From Candidatus Nomurabacteria bacterium (GTDB taxonomy: Bacteria > Patescibacteriota > Minisyncoccia > Phycocordibacterales > UBA1006), in the NCBI GenBank assembly GCA_020632195.1, contig JACKGA010000001.1, positions 45,673 to 109,672 of the forward strand: DNA of 64,000 nt. The letters are read 5' to 3'. The translations under genes and the position numbers were made by a program. The notes beneath the pieces were generated by a model. It was given only the letters and a program-made list of their open reading frames with translations, was not told the origin of the DNA and did no database searches. Shown one piece after another: positions 348 to 58,342 of this stretch. Every line of letters begins with the position of its first letter. Positions within the stretch are counted from its first letter, which is position 1.

Positions 348-375
348 TGTCATCCCCGCGGGGGCGTGGATCCAT
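348..375. repeat. Hairpin repeat copy a (TGTC ATCC-stem-loop-stem-GGAT CCA family)
   Basis: tgtcatccccgcgggggcgtggatcca: the conserved TGTCATCC and GGATCCA flanks around a GC stem, lying just upstream of the helicase start. Confidence 0.55.
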
Positions 376-402: not shown

Positions 403-822
403 TTAGCCGTCTATTCCTACTGTCACTAGCTCATCATTCTCAAAGTAAATTGTAAGCTGATGTCTGCCCTCGTCTTCCATCATATCGAAGGCTAAGTCCC
501 ACTCGATTGGAGGTTGTTCAAGGTTTAGTATATTTATAGCAACTAAGAGAAATTTTTTACTAAAGTCGTCTATCTTGAAGACCACATTTTCATCCCAATC
601 TTTAATATTTTCTTTAATTAAGTTTGCACTCTTTGCAACCAGATCTTGATAACCTCTCTGTATCTTTATATAGAAGTTTCTCTGTTTGTCCGTGGGTTTT
701 TTCTCAACCGCATCAATAAAATATTCGATATATTTATTCAAAGGTTCAAAAAATACCTCGCCTTCAAAATACTTTATTGCTGAATCCCAGTGTGCTGTCT
801 CTAACATAAGCTCACCAAACAC
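403..822 (-). CDS. hypothetical protein (139 aa)
   Basis: Intact ORF that is co-directional with its neighbours; I recognise no motif. Confidence 0.5.
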   Translation of the reverse strand: MFGELMLETAHWDSAIKYFEGEVFFEPLNKYIEYFIDAVEKKPTDKQRNFYIKIQRGYQDLVAKSANLIKENIKDWDENVVFKIDDFSKKFLLVAINILNLEQPPIEWDLAFDMMEDEGRHQLTIYFENDELVTVGIDG

Positions 823-8252: not shown

Positions 8253-8257
8253 CGAAT

Positions 8258-8290
8258 AAACCAAAGCCCCGCAAGGGGCTTTGGTTTATT
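8258..8290 (+). terminator. Rho-independent terminator
   Basis: aaccaaagcccc-gcaa-ggggctttggtt followed by a T-run, immediately after the peptidase stop. Confidence 0.7.
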
Positions 8291-12102: not shown

Positions 12103-12160
12103 AAAAAAATTAAATTTTAGAATAATGATAAAATCTCTCTGCAAAAGAATAATAAGGATA

Positions 12161-12196
12161 AAAAAATGACCCTTTGAAATAAGGGTCATTTTTTAT
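12161..12196 (+). terminator. Rho-independent terminator (bidirectional character)
   Basis: aaaaaaatgaccctt-tgaaat-aagggtcattttttat. Confidence 0.55.
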
Positions 12197-16296: not shown

Positions 16297-16314
16297 TACC
16301 ACCGATTTCAGTAA

Positions 16315-16347
16315 ACAAAAAAACACCCGCATGGGTGTTTTTTTGTT
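16315..16347. terminator. bidirectional Rho-independent terminator
   Basis: aaaaaaacacccgc-atg-ggtgtttttttg. Confidence 0.75.
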
Positions 16348-17106: not shown

Positions 17107-17137
17107 ATAGGGTTATATTAGCATGAAAATGCTGACA

Positions 17138-17168
17138 GAGAAAAACACCCCCAAGGGGTGTTTTTCTC
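17138..17168 (-). terminator. Rho-independent terminator downstream of csp
   Basis: gagaaaaacaccc-ccaa-ggggtgtttttctc. Confidence 0.7.
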
Positions 17169-19660: not shown

Positions 19661-19665
19661 ACGAG

Positions 19666-19694
19666 AAAAAGCCCTTAGAAATAAGGGCTTTTTC
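19666..19694 (+). terminator. Rho-independent terminator after tRNA-Gly
   Basis: aaaaagccctt-agaaat-aagggctttttc. Confidence 0.7.
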
Positions 19695-19715
19695 TTATAT
19701 AGGTGAGGAGAAGTT

Positions 19716-25915: not shown

Positions 25916-25940
25916 AGGATACACAGTATATCTTTGTACG

Positions 25941-25967
25941 AAAAATACCCCGTCAGGGGTATTTTTC
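25941..25967. terminator. bidirectional Rho-independent terminator
   Basis: aaaatacccc-gtca-ggggtattttt, between convergent genes. Confidence 0.75.
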
Positions 25968-30305: not shown

Positions 30306-30839
30306 ATGAATATAGCAATTTTTGGATCTGCCTTATCAGACCCCGAACAAAAAAATATTACTCTTGCATCACATATGGGGAGGGAAGTCGCCAAGCGAAA
30401 GCACACACTCGTGACGGGCGGTTGCGTGGGAATACCATCATATGCAATTGCTGAAGCCTTCAACAATAATGGCGAAACCCATGGGTACTTTCCCGTACAC
30501 AAGGAGGAAGAGATCCATAATCTGGCACATATCTACAACAACGATACGTCTGAAAACTATACCCAAAAAATATTTCTACGTGGATTCTCAAAAAGGAGCA
30601 TCGCTATGATAGAAAACGTGGATGCGGTCATTATCATCAATGGACGCATGGGAACCCTCAGCGAGTTTGCGATGGCCATCGAGGAAGGATTGCCTATTGT
30701 CGTTATGAATGGTTCTGGTGGCATTACTGACCATATCAAAGAAATACTTGCAATGACGGGGCGATCCGATTATGAAAAAATATTTTTTACTGACTCGGCC
30801 ACCTTAGCCATTGACTGGATTGAGTCCTCGCAAAATTAA
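30306..30839 (+). CDS. LOG family / Rossmann-fold nucleotide-binding protein (TIGR00725-like)
   Basis: LVTGGCVGIPS and IIINGRMGTLSEFAMAIEEGLPIV match the GGxGxMG ... PGGxGTxxE pattern of the LOG/YvdD fold. Confidence 0.6.
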   Translation: MNIAIFGSALSDPEQKNITLASHMGREVAKRKHTLVTGGCVGIPSYAIAEAFNNNGETHGYFPVHKEEEIHNLAHIYNNDTSENYTQKIFLRGFSKRSIAMIENVDAVIIINGRMGTLSEFAMAIEEGLPIVVMNGSGGITDHIKEILAMTGRSDYEKIFFTDSATLAIDWIESSQN

Positions 30840-30863
30840 AACCACCCTCTCGGGTGGTTTTAA
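30837..30863. terminator. bidirectional Rho-independent terminator
   Basis: aaaaccaccc-tctc-gggtggtttt. Confidence 0.75.
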
Positions 30864-30864
30864 T

Positions 30865-31488
30865 TTATTTCTTCTTTGTTGTTTTTTTGGGAGCTGGTTT
30901 CTTGGGAGTAGCTTTCTTTTTTGTTGCAGTTGCTTTTTTAGGAGTTGTCTTCTTTTTTGCTGGGGTCTTCTTTGTTGATTTTGGAGATGATTTCTTAGGA
31001 GAAGACTTTTCCTTTGCTGGTGCTTCAATCATAAGTTTTGGCATCGTGATTGTGAGAATCCCATCTTTTACTTCACCGATTGCAGCATCCACATCAATAA
31101 AGTCTGGCAAAGGGATCGTCCGTTCAAAAGAACCAAAATGGCGTTCATAGCTGTAGTAACCTTCATCTTCAGCCTCGTCTTCGTAGTTGGCTACGCCAGC
31201 AATATATACATGGTCTTCGCCTATTTCGATATCGAGCGCCTCTGGGTCGACCCCAGGCACATCAGCCTTTAAAACAATATTCTTACCCGTATCTTTGAGA
31301 TCCACTTGTGGAAATACCAATCCCATGCGTGCCTTGGCATTATCGATGACATCGGCAGTGCGACTTGGTAAATCCCATTGTTCGAACATATCCCATGAGT
31401 CCTGAATCGCATCAGAAACAAGATTGTGTAGGGCTCCACGTAGCGACACCATATTGCGTTCAAAATTTGAAAGTTCATTATTATCCAT
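30865..31488 (-). CDS. Hsp20/alpha-crystallin small heat-shock protein with a Lys/Pro-rich C-terminal tail
   Basis: Alpha-crystallin domain VDLKDTGKNIVLKADVPGVDPEALDIEIGEDHVYIAG...GILTITMPK, followed by about 55 aa of SPKKSSPKSTKKTPAKKKTTPKKATATKKKATPKKPAPKKTTKKK. Confidence 0.85.
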   Translation of the reverse strand: MDNNELSNFERNMVSLRGALHNLVSDAIQDSWDMFEQWDLPSRTADVIDNAKARMGLVFPQVDLKDTGKNIVLKADVPGVDPEALDIEIGEDHVYIAGVANYEDEAEDEGYYSYERHFGSFERTIPLPDFIDVDAAIGEVKDGILTITMPKLMIEAPAKEKSSPKKSSPKSTKKTPAKKKTTPKKATATKKKATPKKPAPKKTTKKK

Positions 31489-34017: not shown

Positions 34018-34044
34018 TGGATCCCTGTTTTCGCAGGGATGACA
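34018..34044. repeat. Hairpin repeat copy e
   Basis: tggatccctg-ttttcg-cagggatgaca, directly downstream of the polA stop. Confidence 0.65.
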
Positions 34045-34074: not shown

Positions 34075-36483
34075 CTACTTAACCTCGAACCAATTTTTTC
34101 CTACACCATAATCAACCTTGATCGGCAATGCGGGAGTAATATCGATCCAATCTTGGTCGAATGCGGATTGCATAAGCTTCACCAACTCTGGAACGACTTC
34201 TTCTATCTTTTCATCTTTGATTTCAAAAACAATTTCATCATGGACCTGCATGACCATCTTTACCTCCGTTTCAAGTTTATGCTTGGTAATCCATTGATCG
34301 ATTTGATGCATGACAAGCTTGATCAGGTCTGCCTCGGTCCCCTGGATTGGAGCATTGATCGCCATGCGTTCTGCCATAGCACGAATGAAGGGGAGCTTTG
34401 AGGTAATATTACTAAAAAATCGCTTACGGCCAAACATCGTTTCGGTATAACCATGCGTGCGGGCAAATTCTTTGGTATCTTCGAGATACTTGGTAATCGC
34501 AGGAAACTGTTCAAAATAGGCATTGTAAAAAGATTGAGCTTCTTTGCGATCAGTGCCAAGCTGTTTTTGCAAAGCAGTCACTCCCATACCGTAGAGCATG
34601 CCAAAGTTGATAATTTTTGCCCGGCGACGTTGTTCATAATCGATATCTTCTGGATTCACCCCAAACACGCGCGCTGCAACCGCCGCATGAATATCTCCCC
34701 CCTCATTAAAAACACGGGTCATGTATTCATCCTGTGAGAGCATCGCTGCAATACGTAATTCAATTTGCGAGTAATCACAAGCTACGAGTGAGTATCCAGG
34801 AGCTGCGATAAATGCCTTTCGAATCACACGTCCCTGCTCTGATCGAATTGGAATATTCTGTAAGTTTGGATTTTGGGAGGCAAAGCGCCCAGTCACCGTC
34901 CCATCTTGCAAGAGTTCAGAATGGAGCCGTCCATCATCACCGATATGGTCTGCAAGAGGTTCCAGATAGGTCGAGACGAGCTTGTGGAGCTCGCGATACT
35001 CAAGGAGATCTTTGATAATCGCGTGCTCATCGTAGAGCTTTTCGAGAATTGACTCTTTGGTCGAGTACCCGCCCGCTTTTGTTTTTTTAACACCTTTCGT
35101 TGGCAGTCCAAGCTCTTCAAAAAGCACTTCGGATAGTTGCTGGGTCGATCGTACATTGAATTCGTGTCCTGCATGGGTATGGATTTTTTGCTCGAGCTTT
35201 TCGAGAGTTTTTGAATATTCCTGCGCCAAATCAGAAAGTACTTTTCTATCGATCATGACGCCCGTCTCTTGTATTTTCTTCATCAGTGGAAGAAGTGGTT
35301 CTTCAATCTTCGTAAAGACTTTCAACAGATTCATTTCTGTGAGTTTTTTTACCAGTGCTTTTTCTGCTTCCTCTGCGGTAGTCACTCCCATGTGCTCAAA
35401 TACTTCTTCTGCGGTTGGGTGCGTGGTTTCGGGATTCATTACCCATAGCATAACTCCCAAGCGACGGGCTGTGTCTGGACTAAGAGCGTCGGCTGGTTGA
35501 GCCGACGCGGCTTCTTCTGATTGGCCATCGGCAGCCGCGCCGGCTCCCTGTGTAGACTCAGCAAACAACCCTTCAATCCGTGGAACGAGGCTACGGAATT
35601 GATACCGTCGACACATTTCTAATAGGCGGTCTTTGTTCAGCGAATCAATCCAAGTGTCAGAAGGAAATGAGTAGGTTATGGGAGCATCGAGACGAATCGT
35701 CGCGAGCCCTTTAGAAAAAAGAGCCTCCGCCTCATGTTCTTCCAAAAGCTTCACAATGCGTTCTTTTACGCCGTCATCGATGAGCTGTTGTCGATTGGTA
35801 TGAATATGTTCGTAGAGGTTCTCAAGTGATCCATAGAGCACGAGTAGTTGCGTAGCTGTTTTCTCACCAATACCTTTTATTCCAATAATATTATCTGAAG
35901 TATCTCCCCGCAAGCCTTTGTAATCTGTGAGAAGTTCTGGCCCAAAACCAAAACGATCCATGACCGCTTGTTCGTTGTAAATGATGGTATCCTTTATCCC
36001 TTTCCGCAACGTAAAGACACGCACACGATCGCCAGTGATCAACTGCATCAAATCCATATCACCTGTTGCAATAACGATATCAATATCTTGATACTCTTTA
36101 TGTGAAATAACTTGCTCTACAATCGTCCCCACCATATCATCAGCCTCAAATCCTGGAGCGTCAAAAATAGGGATATTGAAAGCTTCGCATACCCCACGCG
36201 ATGATTGCAGTTGATGCTTGAGCGCATCTTCAGTTTCTTTGCGTCCACCTTTATAGTCGGCATACGCTTCATGACGAAAAGTCTTGCCGGGCAGATCATA
36301 GGCAGCCGCGATATAGTCAGGCTTGAATTCTTTTACAACACCCAACAGCATGGTAATCAGACCGAACAAAGCACCTGTTGGCTCTCCATCGGCATTAGAA
36401 AAGTCGGGAAGCGCGTGATACGCACGGTGAATAATCGCGTGAGCATCTAGAAGCACAAGGGTTTCATGAGATGTTTTCTTCAT
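34075..36483 (-). CDS. polA: DNA polymerase I (compact, ~802 aa)
   Basis: The 5'-3' exonuclease N-terminus is MKKTSHETLVLLDAHAIIHRAYHALP. Family A polymerase motifs include RRRAKIINFGMLYGMG and QVHDEIVFE. The start is taken at the internal ATG. Confidence 0.95.
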   Translation of the reverse strand: MKKTSHETLVLLDAHAIIHRAYHALPDFSNADGEPTGALFGLITMLLGVVKEFKPDYIAAAYDLPGKTFRHEAYADYKGGRKETEDALKHQLQSSRGVCEAFNIPIFDAPGFEADDMVGTIVEQVISHKEYQDIDIVIATGDMDLMQLITGDRVRVFTLRKGIKDTIIYNEQAVMDRFGFGPELLTDYKGLRGDTSDNIIGIKGIGEKTATQLLVLYGSLENLYEHIHTNRQQLIDDGVKERIVKLLEEHEAEALFSKGLATIRLDAPITYSFPSDTWIDSLNKDRLLEMCRRYQFRSLVPRIEGLFAESTQGAGAAADGQSEEAASAQPADALSPDTARRLGVMLWVMNPETTHPTAEEVFEHMGVTTAEEAEKALVKKLTEMNLLKVFTKIEEPLLPLMKKIQETGVMIDRKVLSDLAQEYSKTLEKLEQKIHTHAGHEFNVRSTQQLSEVLFEELGLPTKGVKKTKAGGYSTKESILEKLYDEHAIIKDLLEYRELHKLVSTYLEPLADHIGDDGRLHSELLQDGTVTGRFASQNPNLQNIPIRSEQGRVIRKAFIAAPGYSLVACDYSQIELRIAAMLSQDEYMTRVFNEGGDIHAAVAARVFGVNPEDIDYEQRRRAKIINFGMLYGMGVTALQKQLGTDRKEAQSFYNAYFEQFPAITKYLEDTKEFARTHGYTETMFGRKRFFSNITSKLPFIRAMAERMAINAPIQGTEADLIKLVMHQIDQWITKHKLETEVKMVMQVHDEIVFEIKDEKIEEVVPELVKLMQSAFDQDWIDITPALPIKVDYGVGKNWFEVK

Positions 36484-36595
36484 AAAATAATTGTAACACA
36501 CCTACGTATTAAATAATCTGATTTTTGGCAACAAATTTTTTTAAACGCCCCCTCGCCAAACCTAAATGAGCTCAGTGTTTCACAAAAAATAATTA

Positions 36596-38310: not shown

Positions 38311-38337
38311 TGTCATCCCCGCGTAGGCGGGGACCCA
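38311..38337. repeat. Hairpin repeat copy f
   Basis: tgtcatccccgc-gtag-gcggggaccca, in the divergent intergenic region. Confidence 0.6.
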
Positions 38338-38408
38338 TCTCAATGTTTCCACTATCTCCTTTTTTGTCAGTCTGAATTTATTTTAGGATATATGATAAAA
38401 TTAAACAC

Positions 38409-39113: not shown

Positions 39114-39124
39114 CATAAAAAACA

Positions 39125-39150
39125 AAAAACCCTCGCGGGTTTTTTGTTTT
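39125..39150. terminator. bidirectional Rho-independent terminator
   Basis: aaaaaaccctcgc-gggttttttg. Confidence 0.7.
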
Positions 39151-39178
39151 TCTAATACATGAGAATAAGTACGGATAC

Positions 39179-45837: not shown

Positions 45838-46698
45838 CTACTCCCCAAAGCTTCCGGAAACCCCGCCAGCGCTAGAGCCGGCGCCCTGGCTTCCGGAAAC
45901 CCCACCATTTTCTCCTGAACCATATGATCCAGGTACTCCACCACCATTTGTTGGCGTGTAAATAGTAGGTTGAGGGTTCGAACCACCTTGCGGTACGTAT
46001 ACCGTGTTGGTGGTTTTTCCCCAATCTTTGGAGATTAGTCCTGAGACTACTCCTCCAACAATTGGGCCGACCCAAGATCCAGCGGCAGCCCATTTCTGGG
46101 CTTTGTTGGCGCCTTGTGGTTGTGTTTGTACATAAATCACTTGCGGCTGAGTCGACTGGGTTTCAGGTGTTTTTTTGGCCTGAAACAGATCTATCTTTGG
46201 AAGCGGTTTGATATCGCTTCCGCAGCCACAATCCGCTGGGGCTGGAGCTGGGGTTTCAGTAAATCTTTTTCCCAAATTGATACAGAAATTTGTACCAATC
46301 TTGAAAGAAACCTTGCTCCAGCTTTCATCTTGCGAAAGCCGGTATTCAAAAATTCTTATACCGGCATTTAGATAGCCGGCAGAAAAAATTATTCCGTCCT
46401 TAACCCCATGGTTAAGGATTTTTTCCCCAGCCTGTACGCTTCTGATGCGTACATTTTGAGAAATATTTGGCGACCCTACTGCAGCCACCAATCTACTCCA
46501 TTCCGCCTGTCCAATTTCTTGGATCAGTGCAGTCTGGGTAGACTGCGGCATGCCACCTACCCATGCTTTAAAAGCGCGAATAGTGTCACCATTGTTTGCA
46601 TTCAGCAAATCCCAGCCCCATGGGTTAAATTCCCCAGAAGCTTTAGAATTTAAGAAAAAAAACAATGTACATACGATTAAAAAATTTATTTTTTTCAT
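45838..46698 (-). CDS. secreted Gly-rich hypothetical protein, paralog A
   Basis: Signal peptide. It shares FKAW, AGYLNAGIR, KIGTNFCINLGKR and a C-terminal GGGVPGS...G-rich tail with the 48685..49752 gene. Confidence 0.6.
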   Translation of the reverse strand: MKKINFLIVCTLFFFLNSKASGEFNPWGWDLLNANNGDTIRAFKAWVGGMPQSTQTALIQEIGQAEWSRLVAAVGSPNISQNVRIRSVQAGEKILNHGVKDGIIFSAGYLNAGIRIFEYRLSQDESWSKVSFKIGTNFCINLGKRFTETPAPAPADCGCGSDIKPLPKIDLFQAKKTPETQSTQPQVIYVQTQPQGANKAQKWAAAGSWVGPIVGGVVSGLISKDWGKTTNTVYVPQGGSNPQPTIYTPTNGGGVPGSYGSGENGGVSGSQGAGSSAGGVSGSFGE

Positions 46699-46953
46699 GA
46701 TTTTATGTTTTTGTGCCCATTTCTGAGCGATTTTTAGAATAAAAACATGACCCCTCGCGGATCATGTCCGGCGAATTGGGGTAAAAAACTACTTTTTTAA
46801 CCTTGATTCTCCACTATTATAACATACTCTTTGACAAAAAGCAAGTCTTATTGTATAAATATCTCTAGAAAACCCAAAAATCAACCTGGTTTCTTGTCGT
46901 CTTGAGCTTTACCATCGCTCGTTCTGGTGTCTCATACACTGATAATACGAGCT

Positions 46954-46978
46954 TTGTCCTCCTGAACGTGTTTCAGAA
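46954..46978. repeat. Hairpin repeat copy k1 (degenerate) / first unit of a 2-copy direct repeat
   Basis: ttgtcctcctgaa-cgtgt-ttcagaat. Its 25-nt core is identical to 47006..47030. Confidence 0.55.
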
Positions 46979-47005
46979 TTTAAGTATCCTCTCATCATCT
47001 ACTCT

Positions 47006-47034
47006 TTGTCCTCCTGAACGTGTTTCAGGATCCA
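47006..47034. repeat. Hairpin repeat copy k2
   Basis: ttgtcctcctgaa-cgtgt-ttcaggatcca. Confidence 0.6.
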
Positions 47035-47124
47035 TGGTACTACAGATATTCTCGTGTCTATTGGGAATTCAGCTCATGGTATGAAATATCTTTTCTATCT
47101 CTTTGTTGAACTCTCTTGGATCTC

Positions 47125-47151
47125 TGGATCCCGATTGTCATCGGGATGACA
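47125..47151. repeat. Hairpin repeat copy g
   Basis: tggatcccga-ttgtca-tcgggatgaca. Confidence 0.65.
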
Positions 47152-47205
47152 AGCATTTGTTTGTTTTTAATTGGGTGTTTATAATCCTTCTATTATATTT
47201 ATGTT

Positions 47206-47614
47206 TGTCATCCTGACGCATGTCAGGATCCATACAACTCCAAAGATAATTTGATATACTAGGAATATTACCCATTATTGAAGACTGTGTAATATGAATC
47301 ATAGAGAATACTATGTATACATTATGTGCAACAAAGCTCGTGGCACCTTGTATATAGGCGTTACAAACAATATAGAAGTGCGCGTGCAACAACATCAACA
47401 AGGAAAAGGCAGTGTCTTTACTGCAAAATACCAACTCTATAGACTTGTATATTATGAATCCTTTCAATACATTGATCAGGCAATTATGAGAGAGAAGCAG
47501 CTTAAAAATTGGAGAAGACAATGGAAGATTAATCTTATCGAAGAATATAATCCAATATGGCGAGATCTCAGCTATGAATGGTTTTATGGATCCTGAAATA
47601 AATTCAGGATGACA
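47206..47614 (+). mobile_element. candidate compact mobile cassette: GIY-YIG nuclease gene flanked by 27-bp inverted hairpin repeats
   Basis: The left end is tgtcatcctgacgcatgtcaggatcca (47206..47232). The right end is tggatcctgaaataaattcaggatgaca (47587..47614). Its reverse complement matches the left end except in the loop. The ORF's stop codon lies inside the right repeat. Confidence 0.45.
47294..47596 (+). CDS. GIY-YIG nuclease superfamily protein (100 aa; COG2827/UPF0213-like)
   Basis: MNHREYYVYIMCNKARGTLYIGVTNNIEVRVQQHQQGKG...: GIY-YIG core (YVYIM..GTLYIGVTNN), conserved Arg, His-Gln-x-Gly and a distal Glu/Asn. The terminal codons gga tcc tga sit inside the hairpin repeat. Confidence 0.8.
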   Translation: MNHREYYVYIMCNKARGTLYIGVTNNIEVRVQQHQQGKGSVFTAKYQLYRLVYYESFQYIDQAIMREKQLKNWRRQWKINLIEEYNPIWRDLSYEWFYGS

Positions 47615-47654
47615 AATGAGAAGAATAATGTGTATTCCAAAATATACAGTAAGA

Positions 47655-47765
47655 CTGGAGAAACAACCTCGATGCAAAGCAGTCGAGGTATATTATTGAG
47701 TTCTCTACTTGCTCACTTCTTGTTTTATTCCGAGGCAGAGACTCGAGGAATATCATCGAGAAGAT
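47655..47765. repeat. ~105-nt structured repeat, copy X2
   Basis: Aligns base-for-base with 33885..33995, with compensatory stem changes (cctcga...tcgagg versus ccccga...tcgggg). Confidence 0.7.
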
Positions 47766-47796
47766 TAAACATAAGCTAAAAGCATAAAGTAAAAAA

Positions 47797-47830
47797 TAAC
47801 CAACAAAAAACACCCAGCAACATGTGGGTG
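47797..47830 (-). terminator. Rho-independent terminator downstream of the Tyr/Asn-rich secreted protein gene
   Basis: Minus strand: acaccca-catgttgc-tgggtgt followed by tttttgtt. Confidence 0.55.
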
Positions 47831-47856
47831 TATTTGGCAGGTAAGAAATGACCAAA

Positions 47857-48432
47857 CTATTTTAGCGAAATCCACTCGAGCGGACACCACTGCCTATTCT
47901 GCTGATACCAGCGATCATAGGTGGGACGCGTATTGAATGCAAAACTCGCCTGTAAAAAAAATTTTGCCCCGTTTACCACAATGGTGGCCTTAGGGTTAGA
48001 TCCTCCCATATAGTAGCCCTGATTACCATAGTAGTAATGATACGGGCTGTAATATCGGTAGCCATACTGTTGGTTGTAGTATGGATACACAATATACGGT
48101 GCAACAGGCACTACATTCGTATTACTATTGTTATTGTTGTTGTAATAGTAATAGTTATTTGTAGTTGTGCTTGGAGTCACTGCTTGATTCCCAGGATTAT
48201 AATAAACATCATCATAATGTTTATTATCTCCATGTGAATCGTCAGAAGACTCTTCATCTTCTCGCCCCGGGCAATCCCAACAATCCTCTACAGAATAATC
48301 ATCCACAGTGGGAGGATTAGTCGTAGGAATAGATATCGTAGATGCTACTGGAATTCCATTAGCATTATACGAAACCTGTGCTTGGGCAATTCCTGCGCAC
48401 AGTAAAAATAATACAAAAAATATATATCTCAT
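47857..48432 (-). CDS. secreted Tyr/Asn-rich low-complexity protein (191 aa)
   Basis: Signal peptide MRYIFFVLFLLCAGIAQAQ, then YYYYNNNNNSN and YYSPYHYYYGNQGYY tracts. Confidence 0.5.
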   Translation of the reverse strand: MRYIFFVLFLLCAGIAQAQVSYNANGIPVASTISIPTTNPPTVDDYSVEDCWDCPGREDEESSDDSHGDNKHYDDVYYNPGNQAVTPSTTTNNYYYYNNNNNSNTNVVPVAPYIVYPYYNQQYGYRYYSPYHYYYGNQGYYMGGSNPKATIVVNGAKFFLQASFAFNTRPTYDRWYQQNRQWCPLEWISLK

Positions 48433-48563
48433 GTCTCATTGGTTTTTAGTTGTTAAAATAAAAAATATCATGAATATTAAACCATACTTTGATTAAAAAA
48501 GCAAGTTTTTAGAAAGGTCCGACCATCGATATCCCTAGAACTAGGTTTCGTATGGGGCGATTC

Positions 48564-48590
48564 TGGATCCCCGTTTTCACGGGGATGACA
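48564..48590. repeat. Hairpin repeat copy j
   Basis: tggatccccg-ttttca-cggggatgaca. Confidence 0.65.
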
Positions 48591-48684
48591 GGGGTTTGGG
48601 TTTACTATAAGAATCAAGTTTTTGCACAAACAAAAATACAGGCCCCAAAAGGTTCCTGTATTTTAGATGTAATTGTCAAAAATT

Positions 48685-49752
48685 TTACTGAATATGTACC
48701 TTTACTTTTGGCAACATATTTTGAAAAAATTTCCCGTCACCAATGGTTGTTGTAATCCCAACAGTAAAACCTACTGTTGGTTTATACACCTGGTTTTGGC
48801 TTATATTTATCTCTTCCGCTTGGGGTTCGATAAACATAATTGATGTTGTGTTCGTTGGCGTCATTGTGGGTTGGGTTGTTGCATTTATTGGTGCTCCGTC
48901 CCATTTTCCACCGCCAAAACTACCTGGAGTACCACCAGTTTCATCAGCAAAAGTTCCGCCATCCTCCGATCCTGGAACTCCTCCGCCTCCAGTATTGACC
49001 ACAACAGGCGGTTGTGGGTCCCCTGTAGGAGTGGTTGTTGTAGTAGTAGATTTTGATTTGCCTTTTATTTGGGTCAAACCATAAATACCAGCGCCAAGGA
49101 CTCCAGCCCCGCCAATTCCCGCAAAAGTATAGCCGATGATTTTTCCGGCTTTGCCTTTTGTCTTGTAATTGGTTGTCCCATTATTGCCACCTTGGTCAAA
49201 ATCCCACGACTCTACCTTGATCTCAGGTTCATCGGTGGAATAATCTGCCGGTGGATTAACAATACTGGGCTTGTTATTACCATTACAGCAACAACAGTTG
49301 TTCGGCTGTTGATTATACTCATACCCATTCGGGTTTGAGGGCTGTTTTGGTGATTGTGGAATATCCTTTTTTAAAGGATTAAAACACCAATTGTCGCCCA
49401 GTTTTGCAATTGGGATCGCAACGGTGTTGTTATCCATCGCCCACCAAATACACTCTGTCCCAGCAATAAGCTGAGACGAGTATGTATAACCTTCTTCCCT
49501 GATACCGTGATTCAGGTATCCTGCCGGAGCAGGTCCTACACTGAATACACCACGGCCGGCTTTGATATCATCCCAGGCTGGGCCTAGGATTTTGCGATAT
49601 CCAGCATCAACTTTAGCTGGGCACATTTTCGCCCAAGCTTTGAATTCGGTAATCGGGTCTTTCCCCGGGGTTTTTCCCCTTTTGTAAAATTCCTGTGCTG
49701 ACACTGATGCGAAAGCCAAGAATGTAATCATTAGAAAAAATATATTTTTCAT
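48685..49752 (-). CDS. secreted Gly-rich hypothetical protein, paralog B
   Basis: Signal peptide. The motifs FKAW, AGYLNHGIR, KLGDNWCFNPLKK and GGGGVPGS are shared with paralog A. It also has a CCCC cluster. Confidence 0.6.
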   Translation of the reverse strand: MKNIFFLMITFLAFASVSAQEFYKRGKTPGKDPITEFKAWAKMCPAKVDAGYRKILGPAWDDIKAGRGVFSVGPAPAGYLNHGIREEGYTYSSQLIAGTECIWWAMDNNTVAIPIAKLGDNWCFNPLKKDIPQSPKQPSNPNGYEYNQQPNNCCCCNGNNKPSIVNPPADYSTDEPEIKVESWDFDQGGNNGTTNYKTKGKAGKIIGYTFAGIGGAGVLGAGIYGLTQIKGKSKSTTTTTTPTGDPQPPVVVNTGGGGVPGSEDGGTFADETGGTPGSFGGGKWDGAPINATTQPTMTPTNTTSIMFIEPQAEEINISQNQVYKPTVGFTVGITTTIGDGKFFQNMLPKVKVHIQ

Positions 49753-49789
49753 TTGAATCTCCTTTTTTGTTTAAAATTTAAAAAATTGT

Positions 49790-50383
49790 TTAGTTTTCGC
49801 GAATAGTTTCGCCTTGGATTGTGGTTTCTTTGAGATTTTTTTGTTTCTCTTTAGAATCCACTTCGTGCTGGGCGACCCAATTCAGAGTAATGGCCCCTAA
49901 TTTGATAAAGGTAACTTTTTGGGTTTCTTTATCATAGTAGCCGTAGAATTTATACTCCTTGGTTGAGGAGTATGCACTGGGCTTCCAGGCAAGAATAATC
50001 TCTTCCCCTTCATCTTCAGCCCACAAAATCAACAGTAATCCATCTTGTTCACCATAGAAAACGCCAGAAGTCCCAGCGCATAGCGCAACTGAGGTTACCT
50101 CTTGTTTTTTCTCCTCTACATACACACCGTCAACGTATTTTTTTGCTCCGGGTGTAGTTTTGGTGATCTTAAAGCCAATATTGGCTGACGGAATGTACTC
50201 GATTTTATTCAAGTATCCGTCATGGAAAGTTTTGTCCGCCACTGTGAATGCACGGTAGCCCGGCATTTTGGCATACTTGTTGGGCGGGCATTTCTTTTGG
50301 TCGCCCGTCACTTGAGTACTTTTACAATTTGTTAAAGAAAACAAAATGAAAGACACGAATGAAAATAATACTAATTTTTTCAT
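49790..50383 (-). CDS. hypothetical lipoprotein
   Basis: MKKLVLFSFVSFILFSLTNC: a signal peptide with an L-T-N-C lipobox. The start is taken at this ATG and not at the upstream track start. Confidence 0.55.
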   Translation of the reverse strand: MKKLVLFSFVSFILFSLTNCKSTQVTGDQKKCPPNKYAKMPGYRAFTVADKTFHDGYLNKIEYIPSANIGFKITKTTPGAKKYVDGVYVEEKKQEVTSVALCAGTSGVFYGEQDGLLLILWAEDEGEEIILAWKPSAYSSTKEYKFYGYYDKETQKVTFIKLGAITLNWVAQHEVDSKEKQKNLKETTIQGETIREN

Positions 50384-50566
50384 GATAATAATTTTTTTTA
50401 GTTTACAAATAAATAAAAAGCCCGACACCCCGGGCAACGGGATGTTGAGTTGTTTTTTATTTTTTAACTCATTTGCGCAGAGTATAACATAGCATGCTTG
50501 ACTTGTAAAGTCTTTTTTGCTATAATTGTGGAGAAATAAAATTTAAAAAACAAAAAAATTATTATT

Positions 50567-58099: not shown

Positions 58100-58294
58100 A
58101 TGTTTCACGACGAAGAAGAAGTAATGCTTGATCTCTACGACGAAGAAGACGAGGAAGACGGACCTCTTATGGACGAGTTCGGAAATCTTCTCGACCCTGA
58201 TGAAGTATCTGAGGATGAAGAAGATACTGAAGAGGAAGAAGAGATACCTTTGATCGACGCCGATGAATTGTCAGAAGAAGACACCGAAGCCTAA
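58100..58294 (+). CDS. small extremely acidic protein (64 aa)
   Basis: MFHDEEEVMLDLYDEEDEEDGPLMDEF...: more than half the residues are Asp or Glu. A terminator follows. Confidence 0.4.
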   Translation: MFHDEEEVMLDLYDEEDEEDGPLMDEFGNLLDPDEVSEDEEDTEEEEEIPLIDADELSEEDTEA

Positions 58295-58296
58295 GT

Positions 58297-58325
58297 AAAA
58301 ACCTGCCAATATGGCAGGTTTTTAC
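58297..58325. terminator. bidirectional Rho-independent terminator
   Basis: aaaaacctgcc-aatat-ggcaggttttt. Confidence 0.75.
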
Positions 58326-58342
58326 TCTCTTTCTTTAAGAAA

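Follow-up and report, generated by a model that had tools for sequence, protein, structure and literature searches.

Single-strand-specific GIY-YIG enzymes of ~94 aa have been described as the Ssn family (Chenal et al., Nat Commun 2025, PMC11893778). SsnA, a 94-aa single-domain GIY-YIG protein of the family listed in CDD as cd10448 (GIY-YIG_unchar_3), binds its hairpin only in single-stranded DNA and in a single orientation, with cleavage a few nucleotides upstream (5') of it; the exchanges Y6A, Y17A and E64A abolish cleavage (PMC11893778). Binding and cleavage restricted to single-stranded DNA were demonstrated for four homologues, from Neisseria and Wolbachia, duplex DNA is not cut by the characterised enzymes, and changing the stem sequence while keeping the structure led to a loss of activity of Neisseria meningitidis (Nm) SsnA (PMC11893778). 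The Neisseria dRS3 repeats belong to the 28-nt oriented hairpin NTS, CGTCATTCCCGCGMAVGCGGGAATCYRG, and in N. meningitidis SsnA lowers transformation by NTS-bearing DNA (PMC11893778). NTS-like 'Ssn-related motifs' (SRMs) lie beside ssnA homologues in many phyla, with at least one motif in 71% and motifs on both sides in 42% of cases, and the authors liken the arrangement NTS-ssnA-NTS to insertion sequences, IS200/IS605 and REP-associated transposases (PMC11893778). Here we analysed a stretch of 64,000 nt from Candidatus Nomurabacteria bacterium (assembly GCA_020632195.1, contig JACKGA010000001.1, positions 45,673 to 109,672; hereafter the window), in which a small GIY-YIG gene is enclosed by two inverted hairpins. 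Judged from its sequence, this locus is very probably an Ssn/SRM module, the protein being an Ssn nuclease and the flanking and dispersed hairpins its cognate SRMs.

The hairpins also have a described counterpart. The CGTC-tagged repetitive extragenic palindromes (REPs; Di Nocera, De Gregorio and Rocco 2013, PMC3733652) consist of a CGTC or TGTC head, an AT-initiated stem of 8-9 bp, a loop of 4-5 nt and a CCA tail. They are predominantly arranged as head-to-head dimers, are mostly found downstream of coding regions, and are said to 'apparently lack a dedicated transposase' (PMC3733652). A literature search found no later paper on Ssn, and nothing relevant on GIY-YIG proteins in connection with RAYT/REP or on YhbQ/UPF0213/COG2827.

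The cassette in the window is made up of the following three features.

47294..47596, plus strand: predicted ssn gene, encoding a 100-aa single-domain GIY-YIG nuclease (Pfam PF01541, alignment with an SsnA orthologue)
47206..47232, plus strand: left hairpin, 27 nt, TGTC-ATCCTGAC-gcat-GTCAGGAT-CCA (sequence, exact-flank motif, structural scan, DNA fold)
47587..47614, minus strand: right hairpin, 28 nt, TGTC-ATCCTGAA-tttat-TTCAGGAT-CCA (sequence, motif, structural scan, DNA fold)

Residues 6-80 of the encoded protein match the GIY-YIG domain (Pfam PF01541, E=1.4e-17), so that 75 of the 100 residues are covered, and no second domain is present. As comparator we used the 94-aa SsnA orthologue of N. 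gonorrhoeae (Y6/Y17/E64, L088:1519-1803), not Nm CAX49033.1. With this orthologue, whose gene has canonical NTS on its flanks (record NZ_CP119140.1, PLSDB), the window protein shares 48% identity over 90 aa (BLASTP, E=2e-27, SsnA residues 5-91 covered), and the match was also obtained in a 7.3-Gb tblastn search (E=1e-17). The predicted catalytic residues Y9, Y20 and E67 are aligned to Y6, Y17 and E64 of SsnA, and the spacing, 11 and 47 residues, is the same in both proteins. For Ssn proteins, a single GIY-YIG domain within <150 aa is expected, which compares with 100 aa here, and the operational definition of PMC11893778 (BLASTP E<1e-10, >=75% coverage) compares with E=2e-27 over residues 5-91 of 94. 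All three catalytic residues are in place, NTS-type hairpins are present on either side of the gene at distances within 500 bp, and these hairpins have the architecture of CGTC REPs (PMC3733652).

The window contains this one ssn gene only, and more than 8000 homologues of its product are detectable. A public protein identical to it (P0001) is annotated as 'GIY-YIG nuclease family protein [Candidatus Nomurabacteria bacterium]'. The solved structures found by sequence are the UPF0213 entries 1zg2 and 1ywl only (E=7e-7 and 6e-4), and no Ssn structure is among those detectable in this way. The record that holds the gonococcal comparator, NZ_CP119140.1, is a 2.17-Mb Neisseria gonorrhoeae entry that is filed as a plasmid in PLSDB; it is evidently a chromosome and carries ssnA with NTS flanks.

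The two flanking hairpins are inverted relative to each other, each with its head TGTC pointing outward. The left one, with its head to the left, has an 8-bp stem ATCCTGAC/GTCAGGAT, a GCAT loop and a CCA tail, ends 61 nt upstream of the ATG and folds as DNA with -7.6 kcal/mol (z=-4.05). The right one, with its head to the right, has the stem ATCCTGAA/TTCAGGAT, a TTTAT loop and the same tail, and folds with -6.2 kcal/mol (z=-3.7). The open reading frame (ORF) runs into this right hairpin: its last codons are GGA TCC TGA, and the TGA at 47594-47596 lies in the 5' arm. Hence, the description given in an earlier note on this DNA, of a GIY-YIG gene between two hairpin copies of opposite orientation whose stop lies within the right repeat, holds for the gene as well as for the repeats.

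A conserved leader precedes the gene within the cassette.

47253..47287, plus strand: conserved 5' leader inside the cassette (alignment of three cassettes)

Two elements of the leader are invariant in the three-cassette alignment, namely G-N-TATACT at 47253-47260, which resembles an extended -10 element, and TGAAGACTG at 47279-47287, 7-15 nt upstream of the ATG. A consensus scan also returned TTGATA-16-CATTAT at 47251-47278, the number of such matches being not above chance. The leader may act as a promoter.

The pairing of gene and hairpins is not confined to this genome. A scan of species-representative genomes gave 397 encoding loci, and the best 80 of these, with 48-65% identity, come from Bacteroidota, Alpha- and Gammaproteobacteria, Patescibacteria, Acidobacteriota, Calditrichota, Fibrobacteria, Chloroflexi and others. 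The flanks of 79 loci from this best 80 were inspected within 500 bp for hairpins defined by structure, that is GTC followed by a stem of 7-12 bp (<=1 mismatch) and a loop of 3-8 nt. A head-outward hairpin was present upstream in 59/79 loci, its end lying at a median distance of 26 nt from the start codon, and such a hairpin was present downstream in 64/79; outward hairpins on both sides were found in 55/79. Shuffled flanks (20 replicates) had both-side hairpins in 0/79 loci and real DNA at a distance of 2-2.5 kb in 0/61. Hence, the association is genuine and widespread, and it is confined to the vicinity of the gene. CCTGAA (32) and GCTGAA (19) are the most frequent inner stems in these relatives, and in 13/55 loci the 5' arm is the same in the left and the right stem. 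The stop codon overlaps the right hairpin in 24/79 loci (30%), and does so in two fixed registers, either with the TGA of GGATCCTGA, as in the window, or with the TGA of GGATGAC.

Some relatives depart from the simple arrangement. Two loci (L024 3001-6005 and L076 3001-3687) each hold two ssn homologues with their own flanking hairpins, the two homologues being directly adjacent in L076. In two others the left hairpin carries an insertion in its loop, of ~55 nt in L081 (3858-3935) and of ~24 nt, palindromic, in L085 (1727-1775), with the stem arms intact, and a similar long-loop form is seen in L058.

Further copies of the hairpin are dispersed in the window. The frame GGATCC-N10-18-GGATGACA occurs six times, at 348-373, 34019-34044, 47126-47151, 47206-47231, 47588-47614 and 48565-48590, against 0.00 expected from 100 dinucleotide shuffles. 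Three degenerate copies (38311-38338, 46955-46979 and 47007-47034) bring the total to about nine. Besides the two that flank the gene, these are:

47125..47151, minus strand: additional hairpin copy, stem ATCCCGAT (motif, structural scan, fold)
46955..46979, plus strand: degenerate copy with head TGTC, first stem base C and 3' arm TTCAGAAT (sequence)
47007..47034, plus strand: degenerate copy, TGTC-CTCCTGAA-cgtgt-TTCAGGAT-CCA (sequence)
48564..48590, minus strand: solo intergenic copy, stem ATCCCCGT (motif, structural scan, published SRM string, fold)
34018..34044, minus strand: solo copy, stem ATCCCTG, loop of 6 nt (motif, structural scan, fold)
348..374, plus strand: solo copy with one stem mismatch, TGTC-ATCCCCGC-gggg-GCGTGGAT-CCA (motif; the fold is no better than that of shuffles)
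38311..38338, plus strand: solo copy, TGTC-ATCCCCGC-gtag-GCGGGGAC-CCA (match to the published SRM string)

All copies except the imperfect one at 348 (z ~0) form DNA hairpins of 7-8 bp with z between -2.5 and -4.1. The inner four stem positions vary from copy to copy with complementarity kept (CTGAC/GTCAG, CCGAT/ATCGG, CTGAA/TTCAG, CCCGT/ACGGG), and the copies at 47206, 47587, 47125 and 48564 have all of the TGTC head, the stem starting with A-T, the loop of 4-5 nt and the CCA tail. The head of the 47125 copy lies 54 nt from that of the left cassette hairpin, with which it forms a head-to-head dimer. The solo copies at 48564 (fold -9.8 kcal/mol, z=-4.0), 34018 and 348 are located ~95, ~30 and ~30 nt past the stops of the gene 48685-49752(-), the gene 34075-36501(-) and the ORF 403-822(-), respectively, while the 38311 copy, whose sequence is the closest to NTS among the window copies, is intergenic between divergent genes. 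The earlier note had these copies scattered through the window; nine are indeed present, but six of them fall within 1.7 kb around the gene (46955-48590) and thus form a cluster. Its remark that the cassette has a lower GC content than its surroundings is correct against the window mean (~0.35 versus 0.41) but weak against the neighbouring intergenic DNA, which has 0.33-0.39.

Several observations concern the surroundings of this cluster. An exact 25-nt direct repeat, ctttgtcctcctgaacgtgtttcag, is located at 46952-46976 and 47004-47028, 52 nt apart; it was read directly from the sequence and was not listed by a tandem-repeat finder run on 46700-47900. Each unit contains one degenerate hairpin with C instead of A as the first stem base, as if a decaying repeat had been duplicated locally. 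The cluster lies among four minus-strand genes for signal-peptide proteins (45838-46698, 47857-48432, 48685-49752 and 49790-50437, together spanning 45838-50437), of which the products of 45838-46698 and 48685-49752 are distant paralogues (25% identity, E=0.003); this setting resembles that of the Neisseria NTS clusters beside surface-protein genes (PMC11893778). In the Logan assembly SRR12358676 of the same organism, independent contigs end at hairpins (L086, L087), one of them ~12 nt past the ssn stop, and a 1003-bp contig covers approximately the stretch between the copies at 47587 and 48564, as would be expected if short-read assembly breaks at the repeat. The window also holds many long perfect hairpins (12-16 bp) at gene ends, A-rich in the 5' arm and T-rich in the 3' arm (8254-8290, 12160-12194, 16313-16347, 17137-17168, 19663-19695, 25939-25967, 30832-30866, 39117-39151 and 58293-58326), which resemble intrinsic terminators working in both directions and have no relation to the SRM family.

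The following points weigh against the assignment to the Ssn/SRM system. First, the published SRM string, HGTCWYN(0-2)YYVSBRHN(0-5)WNVSBRGN(0-2)RNCYNB (PMC11893778), matches only 38311-38338 and 48563-48590 in the window, and neither of these flanks the gene. The flanking copies, with the stems CCTGAC and CCTGAA rather than CCCGCG-like ones, miss the string because they have T/A at its V/S (G/C) positions. Among the relatives, the string is found on both sides in 8/79 loci, compared to 55/79 by the structural definition; it is an under-sensitive heuristic and not a defining feature, and the paper itself accepts members without it (PMC11893778). Second, the inner stems of the solo copies (CCCGAT, CCCCGT, CCCTG, CCCCGC) differ from those of the flanking copies, which, together with the stem-sequence dependence of Nm SsnA, implies that the window enzyme may not cut every copy. 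Third, the transformation-modulating role is described from Neisseria only (PMC11893778).

By analogy to the characterised homologues, the protein would ignore duplex DNA and RNA and bind the hairpin when its strand is single-stranded or extruded, occasions for which could be, for example, uptake during transformation, replication or repair. The determinants of recognition would be the 5' head (T/C)GTC along with the stem and its following C, and hydrolysis would be expected a few nucleotides 5' of the head, with Mg2+ and an active site of Y9, Y20 and E67. Only the strand reading TGTC...GGATCCA should serve as a substrate. As the hairpins are inverted with their heads outward, cuts are predicted just outside each end of the cassette and on opposite strands, so that any one single strand would carry just one cleavable end. 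The most likely cellular role, by the precedent of N. meningitidis, would be the processing or restriction of SRM-bearing single-stranded DNA and, through it, a modulated recombination near SRM-flanked genes.

Mobility was assessed by comparing cassettes. The closest relatives of the window protein (P0003 with 79% and P0004 with 72% identity) have different neighbour genes. In the alignment of three cassettes, homology sets in at TTGTCATCC and ends at GGATGACAAA, with unrelated flanks on either side; it starts ~3 nt or less from the left TGTC head and stops at the right head. Equally sharp edges are seen in L034/L037 (85%) and L009/L042 (78%), and several close pairs with 78-85% identity reside in different contexts, including two copies in one metagenome-assembled genome (MAG; L062 and L077). 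Conversely, ssn synteny is conserved in genera of the Erythrobacteraceae, in two Flavobacterium and in two Hyphomicrobium genomes. No target-site duplication is visible at the window cassette (left flank ...TTATGTT, right flank AATGAGA...), a phage database gave only weak, partial matches to non-Ssn GIY-YIG proteins (35-40%), and a pattern scan of IMG/VR returned no relatives. The comparison of empty sites that the earlier note called for came to nothing, as an exact-sequence look-up of two neighbouring proteins led to the same organism only and to no empty or polymorphic allele. In P0003 (L081 4001-4320), the closest well-assembled relative, a TAG within the frame shortens the protein to 89 aa. 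Beyond it, the frame stays open as far as the ancestral stop, which lies in GGATCCTGA of the right hairpin, and the gene therefore looks like a recent pseudogene or truncation.

The edges, at ~3 nt from the hairpin heads in three independent comparisons, are compatible with mobility and are no proof of movement or of a mechanism. The cassette behaves as a unit of inheritance or transfer, as would fit an element that was once mobile and has since become largely domesticated, and the module probably descends from such an element. That it is a true mobile DNA element with its ends set by the Ssn cut sites appears doubtful. If this were the case, a prokaryotic DNA transposon and a driver of CGTC-REP proliferation would use a GIY-YIG hydrolase and not a DDE, HUH, serine or tyrosine enzyme.

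Of the alternative explanations, the strongest is that the cassette is an autonomous transposable element, active now or recently, whose GIY-YIG nuclease mobilises the solo hairpins along with the cassette itself, much as in RAYT/REPIN. Such a reading addresses the biological role and is compatible with membership in the Ssn family, and the same idea of mobility was raised by the authors of PMC11893778. It draws on the homology confined between the heads with unrelated flanks, on the recurrence of sharp edges in L034/L037 and L009/L042, on the close pairs in different contexts with two copies in one MAG, on the spread of relatives of 50-65% identity over many phyla, and on the coincidence of the cassette boundaries with the reported Ssn cut position a few nucleotides 5' of the head (PMC11893778). 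The synteny in Erythrobacteraceae, Flavobacterium and Hyphomicrobium is instead the pattern of a vertically inherited, domesticated gene. Only a single copy is present in the window, neither a target-site duplication nor an empty-site or polymorphic allele was found, and phage-borne relatives were absent from the phage database as well as from the IMG/VR pattern scan. GIY-YIG enzymes are DNA hydrolases for which no strand-joining activity is known. Furthermore, with inverted hairpins and one cleavable strand each, a single strand would be cut at one end only, unlike in IS200/IS605, and with such a geometry the cassette could not be excised from a single strand. On balance, we consider an active element unlikely. 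The proposal of a mobile element in the earlier note is thus backed as far as discrete cassette boundaries and unrelated contexts are concerned, but no empty site, target duplication or multi-copy identical cassettes stand beside them, and it keeps the rank of a hypothesis.

GIY-YIG is a classic fold of homing endonucleases, and a homing-like spread could be envisaged in which the nuclease nicks SRMs and recombinational repair places copies of its gene in SRM dimers or clusters, with the hairpins as target remnants or homology arms. The position of the cassette inside an SRM cluster, with its left end as part of a head-to-head dimer, would fit, as would the small fraction of loci with identical left and right 5' arms (just 13/55), which is expected if the ends derive from two different pre-existing repeats. 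The protein, however, is without an extra DNA-binding domain and the gene without an intron or intein context. No model specific to the protein exists in NCBIfam, the sole match being the group-I-intron endonuclease TIGR01453 with 17.9 bits against a cut-off of 56. Characterised Ssn enzymes leave duplex DNA uncut (PMC11893778), ~27 bp of homology are short for recombinational repair, and the conserved unit includes the leader that separates the left hairpin from the ATG. This route is therefore rated as quite improbable.

That the hairpins act as ordinary terminators of transcription, or as REPs that stabilise mRNA, and lie around a GIY-YIG gene by coincidence, as might be thought from solo copies 30-95 nt downstream of stop codons and from REPs lying mostly downstream of coding regions (PMC3733652), is effectively refuted, since the association recurs across phyla with 0/79 in shuffles and 0/61 in distal DNA, no T-run follows the hairpins, they are absent from the terminator-like sites found in the window, and the left copy, upstream of the gene with its head outward, is not in the position of a terminator.

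With the assignment to the Ssn/SRM system retained, the gene-plus-hairpin system as such is already published, and the window locus is a further example of it, in a Patescibacteria genome. The expectation in the earlier note that such an association would be new does not hold, as the same pairing of gene and hairpin is reported in Chenal et al. 2025 (PMC11893778). Since the biology has been published, the locus adds little beyond a stem variant, a gap in the SRM string, the cassette boundaries and the stop registers. The present analysis contributes the boundaries at the hairpin heads, the stops inside the right hairpin (30%) and the CCTGA-stem class missed by the SRM string. The string under-detects this class, which is dominant among the relatives of the window protein, and the distinct stem sequence makes the enzyme a candidate for a new single-stranded DNA cleavage specificity in the toolbox proposed in PMC11893778. 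The coincidence of boundaries with heads and the stops in the right hairpin bear on the mobility of the modules, past or present, and on the question of who mobilises CGTC REPs.

Among related systems, a stand-alone GIY-YIG domain of ~100 aa is shared with the UPF0213/YhbQ proteins (PDB 1zg2, 1ywl), whose similarity is far below that of SsnA and which belong to a separate CDD subfamily (PMC11893778). Membership among the GIY-YIG homing endonucleases was rejected, given a single domain of 100 aa, the TIGR01453 score of 17.9 bits versus 56 and phage matches that are partial only. With IS200/IS605 and its TnpA, the cassette has in common the small size and an enzyme that recognises single-stranded DNA hairpins near the ends and cuts at a distance. 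The hairpins of IS200/IS605, however, are on the same strand and its HUH enzyme both cuts and rejoins, whereas the window hairpins are inverted with their substrates on opposite strands; without an HUH domain and with inverted hairpins, the cassette was not assigned to this group. Hairpins of this kind are, to our knowledge, without any reported association with UPF0213/YhbQ proteins.

The parallel to RAYT and REP/REPIN, which the earlier note had drawn, is sound and is also drawn by Chenal et al. 2025 (PMC11893778). Both have a single-copy nuclease gene between inverted dispersed hairpins and a mostly vertical inheritance with occasional relocation. The window enzyme is a GIY-YIG hydrolase and not an HUH (Y1) tyrosine transposase, no covalent intermediate would be expected for it, and the head is CGTC/TGTC instead of GTAG. 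Membership in RAYT/REPIN was accordingly rejected, the protein being GIY-YIG and not Y1_Tnp and the head TGTC.

Closer agreement is found with the CGTC REPs (PMC3733652), from the TGTC variant of the head, the AT-initiated 8-bp stem, the loop of 4 or 5 nt and the CCA tail to the head-to-head dimer and the intergenic location; their copy number per genome is high, and here nine copies are present in 64 kb, six of them in one cluster. Hence, the window hairpins can be named TGTC-tagged REPs as well as putative SRMs. The agreement is closest with the Ssn/SRM modules of PMC11893778, which have inverted hairpins on both sides, a (C/T)GTC head, an AT-initiated stem, a short loop and a CC(A) tail, a single-domain GIY-YIG protein of ~94-100 aa, and extra intergenic copies clustered near genes for surface or secreted proteins. 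The window locus differs from them in its host, a MAG of Patescibacteria (Nomurabacteria), in the A/T-richer flanking stems (CCTGAC, CCTGAA), and in an ORF that stops inside the right hairpin, an arrangement of which the sections consulted in PMC11893778 make no mention.

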